64,000 nt of DNA from a virus. The notes under the pieces are model-generated. The model did not search any database. It was not told where the DNA came from and was given only the letters and a program-made list of their open reading frames with translations. Positions 145 to 49,245 of this stretch are shown here, one piece after another. Where the stretch lies: the IMG/VR virus record IMGVR_UViG_3300030616_000001, positions 30,959 to 94,958 of that record; one strand, 5' to 3'. Numbering within the stretch: the stretch's first letter is position 1; the number at the start of each line of letters is the position of its first letter. The translations under genes were made by a program, and so were the position numbers.

Positions 145-1068
145 CTAGTCGCGGCCGCGCTCCTTCGCCTTGCGGATCTGCGAGGCCTGCTCCTCGGGTG
201 TCTGGTTCTTGGCCGCCAGGTCGCGCCCGCCGAGCCACGCGCTCGAGGCCTTGCTGACGTCGCCGTCGCCGTCCCCCTCGTCGCCGTCGCCGTCGCCGTC
301 GCCACCCTCGTCGCCCTCGTCACCGTCGCCGTCGTCCAGCTTCTCCAGCTCGGGCAACACCGCCTCGGCCGCGGCCTTGAGCTCGTCGCACTTGGCCATG
401 ATCGCGGCGCTGGTGCGGATCGCGTCCTTGAGGGGCCAGTCGTCCCACAGGGAGTCCAGCTGGTCCTTGGTCAGTTCCCCGGACTCGATCGCGGCCTTGA
501 TCTTGCCGTACTTCTCCAGGAGGGTGTCGATGGCCTCCATGGCGAGGGCCTGGGCCGTTGGCTTGTCGCCCTGCTTGCCCGCCGCCGGTTCGACCGAACC
601 GTCCCCGTCGCCGCTGTCACCGGTCCCCTCGTCCCCCGCGCCCTCGTCACCTTCGCCGGCGCCGTCCATGTCGTCCTGCTTGGCGGCCTCCAGGGCAGCG
701 ATCCGATCCTCCAGTGCGGCGATCACGTCGGCCTCGGACTTCTCCACGGGGAGTTCCACCGCGACCAGGCCCTCGGAGTCGGTGACCCCCTGGGCCTTGA
801 CCGCGGCCAGGTTCTTCTTGACCAGTGGCAGCAGGTCCATGTCGCCGTCCTCGATCTTCTGGACCGCGTCCTCGTGCCACGCCTTGAACTCGGCCAGGGT
901 CATGGTCTTGAGGGTGGTCGCGGCCTCCTCGTCGGCCTCGGTCGCGGCCTTGATCGCCGCGCTGATCTTCGCCAACTCGGCGGCCTCCTCCTTGGACAGC
1001 TTGTCCTTGGCGCTCTTGGCCGCGAGAACGGCCTGACGCTTCACCAGCTCGAGAAATTTCTTGTTCAT
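145..1068 (-). CDS. Acidic, helical scaffold-like head protein
   Basis: 307 aa coiled-coil with GDGD-rich linkers; lies downstream of portal/MuF; RBS GGAGA; function inferred from position. Confidence 0.55.
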   Translation of the reverse strand: MNKKFLELVKRQAVLAAKSAKDKLSKEEAAELAKISAAIKAATEADEEAATTLKTMTLAEFKAWHEDAVQKIEDGDMDLLPLVKKNLAAVKAQGVTDSEGLVAVELPVEKSEADVIAALEDRIAALEAAKQDDMDGAGEGDEGAGDEGTGDSGDGDGSVEPAAGKQGDKPTAQALAMEAIDTLLEKYGKIKAAIESGELTKDQLDSLWDDWPLKDAIRTSAAIMAKCDELKAAAEAVLPELEKLDDGDGDEGDEGGDGDGDGDEGDGDGDVSKASSAWLGGRDLAAKNQTPEEQASQIRKAKERGRD

Positions 1069-1433
1069 TGGGTGTCTCCTTCCGGCACGCCGTAGGAACC
1101 CCTCGCAGGAGCCGGCGTGTAGATTCCTCCGTCCAGTTCACAGCGCAACGCGCGTCCCATCTCGGCCTCGATCCTGGAGATGGAGTATCCAAGATCGCCG
1201 CGGAACACGCGGAACCAACGCGCCATCTTCTCGGCGCGTCTCTTCATCTCTGACCCGGTCTGAACCCGTTCCCGGAAGGCCTTGCCCATGACCTTCTCGT
1301 CGTGGTCGAACGACTCGCGGAGGACCCTCTCGAACATGGCCATCGCTCGCTTCGCCTGGTGCGGTTGCAGCATCAGGTCCGCGAATGGACCGCCCGTCGC
1401 CGAGCCAATGGGCTTTGGGATTAGCACTTCCAT
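1065..1433 (-). CDS. Hypothetical protein
   Basis: 122 aa ORF with ATGA overlap to the next gene. Confidence 0.75.
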   Translation of the reverse strand: MEVLIPKPIGSATGGPFADLMLQPHQAKRAMAMFERVLRESFDHDEKVMGKAFRERVQTGSEMKRRAEKMARWFRVFRGDLGYSISRIEAEMGRALRCELDGGIYTPAPARGSYGVPEGDTQ

Positions 1434-30665: not shown

Positions 30666-30996
30666 TGTCGGCCTCGCTGGCGCGGAGATAGAAGAACCCC
30701 TCGAGGCGCGGCTCGTTGGCCATCAGCATCCGCGAGTAGAACGGTTTGTGGTTGTTGTTGAGCTTGAACGGATCCGCGGAATCGGTGTCCATCGCACGGT
30801 GCCAGCGCAGAACCTCGAACAGGCCCGCGATCCCGTAGTGCTTGAACCCACGGTCCACGAGATCCAGGGCAAGGCGCCGCAGTTCCCGGTAGACCCACGG
30901 GTTGTCCCGGTGGAACTGGCGGAACGCCTTCCCCATGTCGGACTCGTCGTCCCGTGTCGCCGCGTCGAGCTCGGGCAGCGTCATCTGGTCATCCAT
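30658..30996 (-). CDS. Conserved phage protein
   Basis: FHRDNPWVY...EVLRW...FKLNNNHKPFYSR. Confidence 0.75.
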   Translation of the reverse strand: MDDQMTLPELDAATRDDESDMGKAFRQFHRDNPWVYRELRRLALDLVDRGFKHYGIAGLFEVLRWHRAMDTDSADPFKLNNNHKPFYSRMLMANEPRLEGFFYLRASEADNG

Positions 30997-32689: not shown

Positions 32690-33148
32690 TCATTCGGCCG
32701 CGATCCTGGTCTTGCCCAAGGTGATCGGCATCAGCCCCGGGTCAATCCCAGCCGTGGGCATGTGCACGTCCACGGGTCCTTCCTTCATCTGGTTCGCCGC
32801 GTCCAGGGCGCGTCGTCTCGCCGCCTCCCTGAGTCGCTCACCCTTGCCACCTCGTTGCTCCTCGACGGCTTCCGTCGCGGCCTTGGTCTGCCCGGAGATG
32901 CACAGCAACCCCTTGCACCTGGGGCACGTGAGGTTGTGTCCGTCCCCCTGCATCTTCTGGGGCAACCGGTACTCCTCCAGGAGCGGCCGGAACCCCGACC
33001 ACACCGACCGGGACGAGAGGAGGAACCCCTTGTCCCCGACGTTGGCGGGCACCTGGATGCGTCCCACAACCTTGTTCTCGTTGGCGCACGTCACGTCCAC
33101 TTGGACGCCCCGCGCCGAATCCTGTTCGTCAACCCTTGCCTTGTCCAT
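32690..33148 (-). CDS. Hypothetical protein
   Basis: Start MDKARV with AAGGAG RBS; CPRC. Confidence 0.65.
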   Translation of the reverse strand: MDKARVDEQDSARGVQVDVTCANENKVVGRIQVPANVGDKGFLLSSRSVWSGFRPLLEEYRLPQKMQGDGHNLTCPRCKGLLCISGQTKAATEAVEEQRGGKGERLREAARRRALDAANQMKEGPVDVHMPTAGIDPGLMPITLGKTRIAAE

Positions 33149-33662
33149 CGTCTTCTCCTTTGCCTGTTCCTTCGCCTTGTAAAATGGCCCGGGCGGGAGC
33201 AGCCATCCCGTCCGGGCCGGAAGAGGCACCGGCGGACGTCTGGTCCGCCAGGAGCGACCCCATTGTATCAGCGGCGCTGCCGGGCTGCAAGCCTCGTGGT
33301 TTGAACCCCACTCCCCGCCACATCCCGAACGTCAACGCCATCAGCATGGTGTGCCGCGCCTCGGTGCTGTTGTTTTCGAGCCACCCCGTGCCGTCGCACT
33401 TGGGGCACGGCCCCGGATCTTGTTCGGCCCGCAACCGCCCCAGGATCTCCCGCACCTTCGCGTACGCCTCGCGGAACCTGGGGTGACACCCGTGGCGCGG
33501 ATGGTCGCAACCCAGGGCCACAACGGCCCCGTCGCGGATCCTGGCCAACGGCATCCCTTCCACGGTGACGTCCGCGTCCTCGGCGCACACGTGTTCCGCG
33601 CCCATCAGGTAGTCGGGGATCGTCTCCGGGTCGGTGACCTCGATCTGGCGGACCTCACCCAC
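33129..33662 (-). CDS. Hypothetical protein (3' tail overlaps the putative sRNA)
   Basis: GGGAGG RBS + GTG; CPKCDGTG. Confidence 0.6.
   Translation of the reverse strand: MGEVRQIEVTDPETIPDYLMGAEHVCAEDADVTVEGMPLARIRDGAVVALGCDHPRHGCHPRFREAYAKVREILGRLRAEQDPGPCPKCDGTGWLENNSTEARHTMLMALTFGMWRGVGFKPRGLQPGSAADTMGSLLADQTSAGASSGPDGMAAPARAILQGEGTGKGEDDGQGKG
33181..33255 (-). ncRNA. Putative ~75-nt anti-Shine-Dalgarno sRNA (hairpin - UGCCUCUUCC linker - terminator hairpin)
   Basis: Follows promoter 33262-33290; stem CUGGCGGAC/GUCCGCCGG with loop CAGAC; 13-bp stem 33186-33218 (one mismatch) then AUUUU. Confidence 0.55.
33262..33290 (-). promoter_or_regulatory. Promoter TTGCAG-N17-TACAAT with extended TGn
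   Basis: -35 at 33285-33290, -10 at 33262-33267. Confidence 0.65.
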
Positions 33663-45268: not shown

Positions 45269-46507
45269 CTAGTTTTTGCGGCGGCCGCGGCCCGTTCCGT
45301 TCTTCTTGGCTCCTCGGCGCCCACCGGATTGGTCACCGTCCCCGAAGAAGTCGTTCTTCTGCTTCTGCTGCTCGCGCTCGAACTCCTCGGCCTCGGCCCG
45401 CTCCCTGGCCAGGATCTCCTCCTGTTCCTCCGGGGTGGGTTCGTCGCCAGGTGCCTCAGATTGGTCCATGCCGTCCTCGTCGTCGGGACCGGGGTCCTGG
45501 TCGGGTTCCACGTGAGTGTCCTCCTCGCGTGGGGCGTCGTCCACCTGCACACCCGTCTCCGCCAGCATCTGCTGCTTGAGGCTGCCCATCCTGGTCAAGC
45601 TCACCCCCTGGGCCGCACCGTCGCCGGCGGCGGTGGGCTGGTCGTCGGCCTCGATGGAGGTGCCGACCACGTTGGTGGCCACATCGGCGAGGGACTGACC
45701 GCGCCCGGACTCGGCAAGGCTGATCAGGGCCGCGGCCTTGTCGAACTCGGGGGACAGGTCCCAGAACTTGGCGGACCAGCGGACAGCGGTCTTCTGCGCC
45801 ATCGCCTCGATGTAGGTGATCCACGGGACGCGGCGGATCGCCGCGGCGTTCATCTCCTTCTCCGGCTCGTTCTCCTTCCACCGCTTCCAGAACACCTCGG
45901 ACCCGTCGTCGCGCCGCTCCACGCGGATGTTCTTGTCGGCCAGGACCCGGTCCCGGTGTTTGAAGATCGCGGTCATGGGGTACGGCTGGCCGAAGTCGTA
46001 GAACCCGTCGTGGTAGCGGAGCGCGGCGTATACCGCGACCATCTTGCCCCGTGGCTTGCGCACGTCCCACGTGTGATTGAGGAACGGGTCGCTGCCCAGC
46101 TGGTGGGCGAACGAGTCGTGCTCGTGGACGATGATCGCCTCCACCTTGCGGACCAGGGGGTCGCGGCGGGCCAGCTTCATCAGGCCGCGGTACTGGACCT
46201 GCAATTGTGTCAGGCGCTGCCACTGCCAGGAGCCGTCGTCGGCCTTGTACTTGGACGACCTGGACTCCAGGTAGGCCTCGCCCAGCGGCCCCTCGAACCG
46301 CACGCCCAGGGTGGCCGCCTCCAGGACCGCGCCCAACGTGGACTCGGGGACGGCGTTGAGGACGTCCTTGTCGCTGCCGATGTGCGTCAGCGCGGAGTTG
46401 ATCCACGCGTCTGTGCTCATGCCGTCGGGCAGGGACTCGTCGATCATCTCCCTGATCCCGGCCGACTCGAGCCAGCCTTCGATCTTGCGGTAGTTCGGAT
46501 GTGCCAT
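45269..46507 (-). CDS. recT: RecT-family recombinase
   Basis: GAVLEAATLG...GEAYL...QVQYRGL.KLARR...EAMAQKTAVR. Confidence 0.9.
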   Translation of the reverse strand: MAHPNYRKIEGWLESAGIREMIDESLPDGMSTDAWINSALTHIGSDKDVLNAVPESTLGAVLEAATLGVRFEGPLGEAYLESRSSKYKADDGSWQWQRLTQLQVQYRGLMKLARRDPLVRKVEAIIVHEHDSFAHQLGSDPFLNHTWDVRKPRGKMVAVYAALRYHDGFYDFGQPYPMTAIFKHRDRVLADKNIRVERRDDGSEVFWKRWKENEPEKEMNAAAIRRVPWITYIEAMAQKTAVRWSAKFWDLSPEFDKAAALISLAESGRGQSLADVATNVVGTSIEADDQPTAAGDGAAQGVSLTRMGSLKQQMLAETGVQVDDAPREEDTHVEPDQDPGPDDEDGMDQSEAPGDEPTPEEQEEILARERAEAEEFEREQQKQKNDFFGDGDQSGGRRGAKKNGTGRGRRKN

Positions 46508-46535
46508 GTGCCTCTTCCTTCCCGGGGCTGCGCCC

Positions 46536-47759
46536 CTACTGTAGTTTGCCCGCCACGGCATCGGCTGCTTGCTCGATGGCGGCGCGTATCTCTCCCAGTT
46601 CCATCTCCAGCATCGCCGCGTACAGGTCGGCCCTGGCCCGCAGCTCGTCGAACGCCTCCACGCCGGCCTCCAGATCGAAGTCGGTGGTGGCGAACTCCTG
46701 GAGTTCCTTCTGCACGGTCATGACCCCGGCATCCGTTGCCTCGTCGCCCGTCTCGGCGCGGTCCTTCGGCCCGAAGTAGCGGAACGACTTGTACGGCTTG
46801 CCCTGCACCTCGTACTTGGACAGGTCCATGTTCGGGTGGTCCGCCTGGAGGGCCTTCTTGTCGAACACCTTACGACCTGCCTGCTCCCTGTGAAGGAATT
46901 TGTGGCGGCCGACTTGGACCGCGTCGATTCCGGCCTCGCCCATGACGTCCATGATCATCGCCTTGGCTGCGTCCATTGCCCGCTTCGCCGCGAGCTCACG
47001 CTCCTTGGCCAGCTTGTACGTGTCCACCGCGTCCTTCCACCCCTTGCCGTCCATCTGCTTGTAGACGGTCTTGCCGGCCTTCTTCGTCTCGGGCTGCTTG
47101 AACGCGACCGCCGCCGGAGGCACGTTCTTCTCCACGTGCTCGCGCCAGAACCTGCGGGCGTTGTCCTGGAGGATCGTGCTGACGTCCGGGTCCAGGGGCA
47201 ACTCCACGACCTGCAGGGCCACGTTCTCGCACTCGTAGATCACAACCCTGGTGCCCTTGATCTTGCCCTTCCACTCGTCACCCAGGTACGGCAGGGTGCA
47301 CACGTTGGCGCAGTGGGCGAGGTGGGCGGACTGGATCATGTAGTAGTCCCGGATCCCGCTGGTGCGGAACGAGTCGGCGACCCGCTGCATCGGGGACTTG
47401 ATCTCCAGGACCCACCCGTCGGCGCACAGTCCGTCGAAGTCGGCGAACATCGGCGAGTCTGGGTCGTCCACCTGGAAGCCGTGGTAGCGTTCCTGGTCTG
47501 TCTGCGGCGCGTACACCTTGATGCCCGACTGCGCCTCGTACATGGCGGCGGCCAGCGGCTCGTAGGTGTTGCCACGGCGCAGGTGCGGGTTGTCCTCCTC
47601 GGCGGCCACGTCCTCGGCGGTGATCGTCCGCTTCTTGGAGATGTACAGGTCCACCGGGGTCTTCTTGAACACCTCTCCCAGCGCCAGGATCGGCGAGTCC
47701 GAGGATCCCACTCCCCGCTGCCTGCCCTGGAGCCACTTGACTTTCTCTGCGATGTTCAT
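46536..47759 (-). CDS. YqaJ-like viral recombinase exonuclease
   Basis: WL..RQ.GVGSSD, RRGN.YEP, ADFDG, LEIK, YY.IQ. Confidence 0.9.
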   Translation of the reverse strand: MNIAEKVKWLQGRQRGVGSSDSPILALGEVFKKTPVDLYISKKRTITAEDVAAEEDNPHLRRGNTYEPLAAAMYEAQSGIKVYAPQTDQERYHGFQVDDPDSPMFADFDGLCADGWVLEIKSPMQRVADSFRTSGIRDYYMIQSAHLAHCANVCTLPYLGDEWKGKIKGTRVVIYECENVALQVVELPLDPDVSTILQDNARRFWREHVEKNVPPAAVAFKQPETKKAGKTVYKQMDGKGWKDAVDTYKLAKERELAAKRAMDAAKAMIMDVMGEAGIDAVQVGRHKFLHREQAGRKVFDKKALQADHPNMDLSKYEVQGKPYKSFRYFGPKDRAETGDEATDAGVMTVQKELQEFATTDFDLEAGVEAFDELRARADLYAAMLEMELGEIRAAIEQAADAVAGKLQ

Positions 47760-47771
47760 CGCTACTCCTTT

Positions 47772-48950
47772 CTACGCGAGGCCCGGGTATGGGTCCTCGT
47801 GCCGCACGAACGCGGCTACCTCGTCCGTCCCACCACGGTGGGAACACCCTTTCCGATACGGGCACTGGGACCCGTGACCACGACACGCCGCACCGTTGCG
47901 CGGCCAGATCCGCGCCGACCTGTGGTGCTCCTCCACGCCGATCAGCGCGTGGACGTCCGCGACCCACGCCTTGACGGCCTCCACGGTGGACTCCACACCG
48001 ACACGGTACGCGAACGTCTCGCCGCGGCCGATGATGCGCTCGAGCGCGGACGCGCACCGCTCGTTCTCCACGTCGGGATCCAGCCCGTTGGCGCGGACCG
48101 TCGCGTTCCACTGCTCCAGGGACGTGTCACACGCCGACCTGGACATGCCGCCGACGCCCGAACCGTTGCACTCGCCGCACTGCTTGGTGACCACCTCCCC
48201 GTCCTCGTCCTTCCGTGACGGGATCGTTCCCTTGCCCTTGCAGTTGCGGCACTTGATCGTCTCGGGGATCGCCGGGGCCTTGGTCCGCACCACCTCCACA
48301 GTGGCGGCGGTGATCGTGGTTTCCGCTGCCTTGGACGCGATCCACATCGCAGCGGCGAGCCACTGGTCGAGTTCCATGTCGTCGGCGACGGTCTGGGGGT
48401 CTGTGGTGGACGTGAACTTGCGGACCAGGACCGCCGGTCCCAGCTGGCCACGGTCCAGGACCCCGTCGATCCTGGCGGCGTAGGTGATGTCACCGAGGCC
48501 CAGCGGGAACTCGACCACCCTGTCCACGAGGGGGCGGCCGGTCTTGTCCACCATGAACTGCGGGTCGGAGATGCCGCCGAGGGTGTCCCCGTAGTGGGCC
48601 AGGATCCGCATCGCCTCGTCGGCGATCTCCTCGATGGTACAGGTCCACCGTTGCGCCTCGTCGCGCCCCATCTCACCGACCATCCGCAGCAGTTCGTGTC
48701 TGTACGCCATGACCACCGCGTCCGCGGCGGCCCGGGTCCTGATCGCGCTCAACCCGCGCACCACGGCCCGATCCCGCTCGTGGAGTGCGTCGGCGAGCAC
48801 CGACTTGATCCTGGGCGGCCACGGCGCGTGGCGGCGCCCTTTCAGTCTCCAGTTGTCCTCGTACTCGATGCGGAACCTGCGCGGGCACGTGGCCAGCGTG
48901 GTCAACATCGTCCTGGTCCGCCTGTTGGGCGGCCGTGTTTGGTTCTCCAA
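47772..48950 (-). CDS. AddB/Cas4-like PD-(D/E)XK protein with inserted DnaJ-type Zn finger
   Basis: TCPRRF at N-terminus, C...CPYRKGC at C-terminus, ARIDG; CRNCKGKG/CGECNGSG; TTG start after AGGAGGAGG. Confidence 0.75.
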   Translation of the reverse strand: MENQTRPPNRRTRTMLTTLATCPRRFRIEYEDNWRLKGRRHAPWPPRIKSVLADALHERDRAVVRGLSAIRTRAAADAVVMAYRHELLRMVGEMGRDEAQRWTCTIEEIADEAMRILAHYGDTLGGISDPQFMVDKTGRPLVDRVVEFPLGLGDITYAARIDGVLDRGQLGPAVLVRKFTSTTDPQTVADDMELDQWLAAAMWIASKAAETTITAATVEVVRTKAPAIPETIKCRNCKGKGTIPSRKDEDGEVVTKQCGECNGSGVGGMSRSACDTSLEQWNATVRANGLDPDVENERCASALERIIGRGETFAYRVGVESTVEAVKAWVADVHALIGVEEHHRSARIWPRNGAACRGHGSQCPYRKGCSHRGGTDEVAAFVRHEDPYPGLA

Positions 48951-48981
48951 GTGCCTCCTCCTTTCGGCCAATGGCTGCGGC

Positions 48982-49245
48982 CTACTGGGCGTCGGCGTCC
49001 ATCGTCGGCATGAACGCCTCACCGTACTCGTCCGGGCTGACCTCCTCCAGAATCTCGTCCGTGCCCACGTGGAGCGCGGAGCAAATGTCGCGCAGGAGCG
49101 ACGCCTTGGGGTCGCCGCGTTGGAGGATGTCGTGGAATCCCTGGGGGGTCTTCCCGACTCGCTCTGCAATCTCCCGCAGCGTCAGGCCGCGGCGCTTGCA
49201 CAGCAACTCCACACGCGCCTTGAAGTGGTTCACCTTCGTTCCCAT
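48982..49245 (-). CDS. XRE-family HTH regulator
   Basis: RGLTLREIAERVGKT...GDPKASLL..IC.AL. Confidence 0.88.
   Translation of the reverse strand: MGTKVNHFKARVELLCKRRGLTLREIAERVGKTPQGFHDILQRGDPKASLLRDICSALHVGTDEILEEVSPDEYGEAFMPTMDADAQ

Follow-up and report, generated by a model that had tools for sequence, protein, structure and literature searches.

A candidate c4-like antisense RNA nested in the end of a phage gene and predicted to act on a recombination operon

Here we describe a compact conserved element at the 3′ end of an open reading frame (ORF) in a 64,000-nucleotide stretch of viral DNA, positions 30,959 to 94,958 of IMG/VR record IMGVR_UViG_3300030616_000001 (hereafter the window, whose numbering is used throughout). 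On balance, we favour the reading that this element is the gene for an antisense small RNA of ~75 nucleotides (nt), comparable with c4 of phages P1 and P7, which would repress translation of the phage's recombination operon. The comparison of related phages reveals a conserved structure, selection at the nucleotide level, promoter-like hexamers with conserved spacing, and a two-part complementarity to target leaders that is conserved together with the element. In the source phage the element has the following parts, in coordinates of the window:

33129..33662, minus strand: host ORF P0001, 177 amino acids (aa), an orphan carrying CDHPRHG and zinc-ribbon-like CPKC motifs, with its last ~55 codons holding the entire RNA element
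33285..33290, minus strand: −35-like hexamer TTGCAG, consisting of Leu codon TTG and CAG of P0001
33262..33267, minus strand: −10-like hexamer TACAAT, 17 nt after the −35-like hexamer
33180..33255, minus strand: predicted small RNA of ~75 nt, placed from the promoter and terminator positions
33231..33249, minus strand: hairpin 1, 7 bp with loop CAGAC, which may be extended by pairing of 33255-33251 with 33230-33226
33219..33230, minus strand: linker (seed 1) GGUGCCUCUUCC, with its CUCUUCC part predicted to be unpaired
33186..33218, minus strand: hairpin 2, terminator-like and GC-rich, 7 + 5 bp around a 1x1 internal loop
33199..33205, minus strand: hairpin-2 loop (seed 2) UGGCUGC, invariant in six genomes
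33180..33185, minus strand: U run AUUUUA, with four U

The 5′ end of the predicted RNA was assumed to lie 7 nt past the −10 hexamer and its 3′ end was placed within the U run; the element region folds better than its shuffled versions (z = -3.1). An earlier note on this DNA had placed a promoter, two hairpins and a linker here, and each of these sequence features was found on the minus strand at the position it had assigned. Two of its structural details changed on re-examination. The stem of hairpin 2, given as 13 bp, is made of 12 pairs interrupted by the 1x1 internal loop, and the linker, described as essentially single-stranded, is so in its CUCUUCC part, which is predicted to be unpaired (p > 0.9) in every folded version, but its GGUGC part could base-pair with the RNA's 5′ end. 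Across the whole window no Rfam family matched at gathering thresholds, and an E-value search of the locus against Rfam 15, which includes c4-type families, gave best scores of <= 18 bits against gathering scores of 35-112.

The source record is 94,958 bp long with 66% GC, carries direct terminal repeats and is rated complete; the window is its last 64 kb. Gene calls based on GC content at third codon positions (GC3) gave 115 genes, on the minus strand. No integrase or resolvase families were found in this genome, and therefore the source phage, here called G000, is probably virulent; its 95-kb genome is taken to be complete. Scanning IMG/VR by pattern and by protein yielded six related contigs, all of which carry the element at the end of their P0001 orthologue, while pattern scans of metagenomes and bacterial genomes returned the same phages and chance matches only. 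DNA and protein searches of published phage records with P0001, with the product of the downstream gene P0002 and with two distant homologues gave no match. The comparisons below use the full sequences of the source phage and its six relatives, that is, seven genomes in six lineages:

G004: 37.6 kb, 66% GC, mean protein identity to the source phage 94%
G003: 55 kb, 65% GC, mean protein identity 62%
G001: 98 kb, 51% GC, 87 of the 115 source-phage genes shared at a mean identity of 66%
G002: 100 kb, 55% GC, mean protein identity 55%
G005: 36 kb, 52% GC, mean protein identity 50% over 33 shared genes
G006: 97 kb, 39.5% GC, mean protein identity 42%

Although these seven phages have a common gene content and gene order, their GC content spans 39.5% to 66%, an unusually wide range for one phage group that suggests very different hosts.

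Both hairpins are retained in G000-G005 while their sequences change. In an ungapped alignment of these six genomes, pairing holds in 93% of cells and two-sided changes affect 8 of 19 pairs, a combination reached by 0 of 500 shuffles, and pairing falls to 26-61% in controls in which the partner strand was slid. Hairpin 1 has two-sided changes at 4 of its 7 pairs, with a loop sequence that is not conserved; hairpin 2 is paired in 95.8% of cells, with two-sided changes at 4 pairs. The hairpins of several relatives use G-U pairs, and pairing therefore works on the transcribed strand only. The predicted folds of the six versions (73-77 nt) share the same two-hairpin shape, and the divergent version in G006 is 55 nt long. 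A covariance model of the element (R1) finds exactly one copy per genome and does not detect the G006 version. The linker core UGCCUCUUCC is invariant in G000-G005 and differs throughout in G006. Of the two residues that precede it, the nearer is G, but A in G005, and the next is G, but U in G004; the G005 change from G to A is matched by a change from C to U on the 5′ strand of the RNA and is thus compensated within the molecule.

The strongest single result is a codon test, restricted to residues that are invariant in five diverged genomes (51-66% GC) and encoded by degenerate codons. Identical codons in all five were seen at 0 of 26 such residues in the ORF core, compared with 5 of 10 in the tail (hypergeometric P ~7e-4). 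The five frozen codons are the Leu codon TTG of the −35 hexamer, the linker codons GCC, TCT and TCC, and codon GCT in the loop of hairpin 2. Over hairpin 1 the encoded residues vary freely while pairing persists, which, together with the frozen synonymous sites, points to selection on nucleotides and not on the peptide alone. The peptide is also constrained: the ORF tail, described as junk-like in the earlier note, keeps its reading frame in every relative and carries a motif, GASSxPxGxAAPxRA, that recurs across a 24-member protein family, and G006 retains the residues ASS using different codons. The tail is thus dual-coded, and because the stop codon of the ORF lies 51 nt past the RNA, this applies to the whole of the predicted RNA.

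A TTGnnn-N17-TAnnnT arrangement is kept in all seven genomes (−10 versions TACAAT, TATGAT, TACCAT and TACAGT) despite changes in the encoded residues, and its −35 Leu codon is TTG in every genome, whereas other conserved Leu codons vary. The site matches the consensus at 8 of 12 positions, which is under the scan threshold. Consensus scans for promoters and terminators list neither end of the predicted RNA because the −35 hexamer agrees with the consensus at only 3 of its 6 positions and the U run is just four U. The length of this run varies (4 U in G000, 6 in G001, 5 in G002 and <=3 consecutive in G003 and G005), so hairpin 2 may serve as a terminator in some lineages and as a 3′-end protector in others. 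The presence of strong sigma-70-like promoters in the early intergenic regions of the phage was counted in favour of the proposed RNA gene; three of them, with 16-nt spacers, lie on the minus strand at 59092-59065, 55420-55393 and 53388-53361. As a separate observation at the 3′ end, TAATTCCATCAG is common to G005 and G006 just 3′ of hairpin 2 (L134 3440-3452 and L135 3398-3410), and the high-GC relatives are without it.

The candidate targets lie in one operon:

47772..48950, minus strand: target gene 1, a 392-aa PD-(D/E)xK-like nuclease, first gene of the recombination operon
48951..48961, minus strand: nuclease ribosome-binding region, complementary to the linker with one G-U, before start codon TTG at 48950
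48966..48982, minus strand: small hairpin in the 31-nt nuclease leader, with loop GCAGCCA (48978-48972)
46536..47759, minus strand: YqaJ/RecE-like exonuclease gene between both targets, with a leader complementary to the seed in G002 and G005 only
45269..46507, minus strand: target gene 2, recT (Pfam RecT, 1.4e-21; PHROG RecT-like)
46508..46518, minus strand: recT ribosome-binding region, 11/11 linker complement

The two complementary sites reported by the earlier note, 11/11 at recT (46518-46508) and with one G-U at the nuclease gene (48961-48951), do exist, and they proved to be conserved. At the nuclease gene, for which no Pfam match was found and whose protein is grouped with PDDEXK_1 clusters at 0.96 in the ESM Atlas, GAGGAGGCA is common to four lineages. 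The recT leader keeps GGAAGAGGCA in G000, G001, G002, G004 and G005 and has GGAGAGGCA in G003. By duplex energy, recT and the nuclease gene are the top two partners of the linker in G000, G004, G003 and G001 and within the top four in G002. In full-length co-folding they rank 1-3 of 33-115 genes in five of five genomes, with a different third high scorer each time. In a rank-product permutation the best gene reached P = 6.5e-4 and the second P < 5e-5, both values being inflated by shared ancestry. Leader conservation points to the same two genes: among 77 ortholog groups, leaders typically share 3-5 nt, compared with 9 for the nuclease and 7 for recT, both including GAGGCA, which places them among the most conserved even though their distance to the start codon shifts by 2-5 nt.

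A second contact, absent from the earlier note, involves the other exposed segment. UGGCUGC in the loop of hairpin 2 is complementary at every base to GCAGCCA, the loop of the small hairpin in the nuclease leader. This leader loop is invariant in G000, G001, G002 and G003, on a stem that differs between genomes and always pairs. In these four lineages GCAGCCA lies 8-11 nt upstream of the ribosome-binding match, so that the order of the two sites fits antiparallel pairing with the RNA. The 7-mer has 6-13 coding-strand occurrences per genome, a rarity that makes its presence in a 31-nt leader unlikely by chance. In G006, which has no nuclease gene between its helix-turn-helix and exonuclease genes, GCAGCCA is found nowhere in the genome and the linker and loop are different, so both partners are absent together. 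A scan with the nuclease-leader motif found no new lineage and no phage with the leader but without the RNA. Complementarity to the loop was also considered as a second site at recT and rejected, being only a 6-mer, present in G000 and G004 and not conserved.

Taken as a mechanism, these features would work as follows. A host sigma-70-type promoter inside P0001 would start the RNA, hairpin 1 would act as a structural module, and the GC-rich hairpin 2 with its short U run would end the RNA or protect its 3′ end. The pyrimidine-rich linker core would pair with the Shine-Dalgarno regions of the nuclease gene and recT, on mRNAs transcribed 13-16 kb upstream, and in two lineages also with the leader of the YqaJ exonuclease gene, while the hairpin-2 loop would form a kissing contact with the GCAGCCA loop of the nuclease leader. 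Such pairing would mask the ribosome-binding site as far as the start codon and would thus be expected to prevent initiation of translation in the recombination module. The production of a discrete RNA, its pairing in vivo and repression as the effect are each proposed here from the conservation of sequence and predicted fold.

Several points weigh against this proposal. The comparison comprises only seven genomes in six lineages, whose common ancestry inflates the permutation P values. The earlier note had set homologues with covariation between seed and targets as a check: homologues exist and both of their hairpins covary, but seed and targets are invariant in G000-G005, which amounts to co-conservation without covariation between them. 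Where the seed does change, from G to A in G005, the facing recT base changes from C to A and pairing is not restored. For the divergent element of G006 a target was sought and none was convincing. The linker resembles the 16S anti-Shine-Dalgarno sequence and hence matches purine-rich ribosome-binding sites generally. The discrete RNA and its ends are sequence-based predictions, the U run is weak in G000, G003 and G005, and simple scans find neither promoter nor terminator. A terminator-like hairpin within the ORF would, if efficient, truncate P0001's own mRNA. Finally, since the tail is conserved as protein too, with G006 keeping ASS through other codons, its conservation is partly at the protein level.

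A possible alternative, to which we give limited but real credence, is an action confined to cis, in which the element would work on the polycistronic mRNA between P0001 and the following gene, as a terminator, attenuator, processing site or 3′-stability site, perhaps bound by protein at the linker and loop, with the leader complementarity unused. The gene concerned is:

32690..33148, minus strand: downstream gene P0002, 152 aa, an orphan whose leader carries the invariant 12-mer AGGCAAAGGAGA

Neither P0001 nor P0002 has any match to Pfam or PHROGs. Hairpin 2 and its U run do resemble a terminator, and with all genes on one strand read-through control points would be expected. The P0002 leader (33149-33175, minus strand) is unusually conserved, its 12 nt being invariant in four lineages; in G000, G004 and G005 it also carries GGAACAGGCA, a 9/10 complement of the linker, and P0002 ranks 6-12 among predicted targets in four genomes. 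But the linker pairs only weakly with the ribosome-binding site of P0002, and a deletion removes the 9/10 complement from G001 and G003; sequestration of this ribosome-binding site in cis by the linker was accordingly rejected. An attenuator accounts less well than a short RNA for a conserved promoter placed directly 5′ of a terminator. Nor does action in cis explain the match of two distinct exposed segments, in the correct order, to a single leader in each of four lineages, or the constant top ranking of recT and the nuclease gene. P0002 might itself be an additional weak target, either in cis or in trans.

The earlier note had proposed a much wider regulon, in which the RNA would act through GAGGCAC as a broad anti-Shine-Dalgarno factor on TOPRIM/topoisomerase-like, DNA methyltransferase and MoxR ATPase genes and others. 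With the gene ending at window position 1 added to the set, we regard this extension as unlikely. GAGGCAC has 11 coding-strand occurrences in the source phage, six of them directly before long ORFs; CAC is the commonest triplet after GAGG that is unexplained by the 16S tail or by overlapping GAGGAGG repeats; and the TOPRIM leader is the best co-fold partner in this genome. The proposed enrichment before start codons is present there at the margin (6 of 115 genes against 2.8 expected, P ~0.05) but absent in four relatives. The matches at the TOPRIM, methyltransferase, MoxR, queE and 16088..16561 genes do not recur in the orthologous leaders of relatives; in G001, G002 and G003 this holds for the TOPRIM, methyltransferase, MoxR and window-1 gene leaders. 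None of the leaders of the wider set has the second, loop-matching site. The shared GCAC, which had been offered as the discriminating feature, gave way to GGCA, the only part conserved in the targets. At ~67739 of G001 (L024), a leader and start nearly identical to those of the source-phage methyltransferase gene (GGAGGCAC, followed by two bases and then ATG GGC) are followed by a frame of only 20 codons, which may be a disrupted or relocated gene.

A signal at the DNA level, with the same double-stranded 10-mer in the linker and the two leaders recognized in either orientation by a protein of phage or host origin, would account for the fact that linker and leaders form one motif in opposite orientation on double-stranded DNA. 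It is very improbable: the motif sits exactly at ribosome-binding sites in an operon with intergenic gaps of 12-31 nt, the hairpins need G-U pairs, which are present on the transcribed strand only, their stems covary while loops stay fixed, and other sense-strand copies of the motif fall randomly within genes. Hardly plausible at all is the absence of any RNA function, with conservation due only to the C-terminal peptide of P0001 or to a programmed frameshift fusing P0001 to P0002, since, although the tail motif is conserved in 24 proteins, ASS persists in G006 with other codons and in the source phage the P0002 frame runs uninterrupted from the linker on, synonymous freezing is confined to the linker, loop and −35 hexamer and hairpin-1 residues change freely with pairing kept. 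The fusion was rejected in its own right: in G004, G001, G005 and G006, stop codons located between the linker and the start of P0002 interrupt the P0002 frame, which makes a fusion impossible in four of the seven genomes. A GTG at 33229 (minus strand), within the linker, shares the P0002 frame and would begin a 179-aa ORF in G000; as a real start it was likewise discarded, having no ribosome-binding site and meeting in-frame stops in four relatives.

Two further observations concern individual genes. The leader of gene 1068..145 (window 1069-1095, minus strand) has a 17-nt stretch identical in G000, G001, G002 and G003 and is by far the most conserved among the 77 ortholog groups; its 307-aa product has no PHROG match, and the leader, in which GUGCC is followed by a purine-rich ribosome-binding site, is poorly placed among the predicted partners of the small RNA (ranks 22-81). 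In the 392-aa nuclease-like protein, residues 222-274 (48130-48290, minus strand) hold a double CxxCxGxG motif with weak matches to structures of the lambda antiterminator Q (E ~0.003) and to a Q-like PHROG. Identity as a Q antiterminator was rejected, the match being confined to the shared CxxCxGxG zinc-ribbon motif; P0001 and P0002 likewise carry CxxC motifs.

Among known systems, the proposed antisense RNA comes closest to c4, an RNA of ~77 nt whose function depends on its fold and on recognition in two parts, and which is processed from the transcript of its target's own operon, controls an antirepressor and acts in immunity. In P1 and P7, c4 uses short, exposed stretches of complementarity to block a ribosome-binding site (PMC12197685). 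The element described here shares with it a phage origin, about the same length and two exposed segments that match two sites around a ribosome-binding site, that of the nuclease gene in four lineages. It differs in lying 15.7 kb downstream of the nuclease start, with its own promoter-like site and inside a coding region, and in having recombination genes as predicted targets, in a phage without integrase; it also has no Rfam match. In satellite phage P4, the CI RNA is excised from a leader transcript and causes premature termination of transcription; like it and the related CB RNAs, our candidate would be a small phage RNA with a conserved seed and complementary sites repeated in phage transcripts, but here the sites are ribosome-binding sites beside start codons. 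RsaE/RoxS of Firmicutes and 6C of Actinobacteria are C-rich-seed RNAs with stand-alone chromosomal genes and seeds in loops. They occlude the ribosome-binding sites of several mRNAs through an unpaired, pyrimidine-rich mimic of the anti-Shine-Dalgarno sequence, as would the present RNA, whose gene is nested in a phage coding sequence, whose seed lies between two hairpins and is joined by a kissing loop, and whose conserved target is one operon.

Small RNAs from the 3′ ends of genes are likewise familiar: DapZ and MicL have an internal promoter and share the terminator of the mRNA. The element resembles them in having its promoter inside an upstream coding sequence and in ending at a hairpin near the gene end, but here the terminator-like hairpin is itself inside the reading frame, with the ORF stop 51 nt further on, overlapping the start of the next gene. 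As to short phage transcripts with a promoter followed closely by a terminator, lambda oop is a true cis-antisense RNA and the 6S RNA of PR′-tR′ is an antitermination leader; our candidate has the same layout, but neither antisense overlap nor a Q-type system is evident.

A rather improbable further role, which we mention as a speculation, is that of a family-wide cross-silencing, or exclusion, factor, with which a resident or first-infecting phage would silence the nuclease/RecET-type operon of co-infecting relatives. Seed, loop and target leaders are identical across phages at 55-66% protein identity, so that the RNA could act on a relative's operon. If true, a virulent phage would have, within a dual-coded protein tail, an RNA-based counterpart of c4/CI heteroimmunity.

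To our knowledge, few phage RNAs regulate genes of their own phage by pairing in trans, and almost all of these come from temperate coliphages. The element adds a candidate trans-pairing RNA from uncultivated ~95-kb phages, with a design that can be read from the sequence alone, and its short seeds and leaders are suited to direct reporter testing independent of the host. If confirmed, it would represent RNA-level control of the timing or dosage of a nuclease/exonuclease/RecT recombination module, and would clearly illustrate how an RNA gene and the tail of a protein can share nucleotides under double selection.

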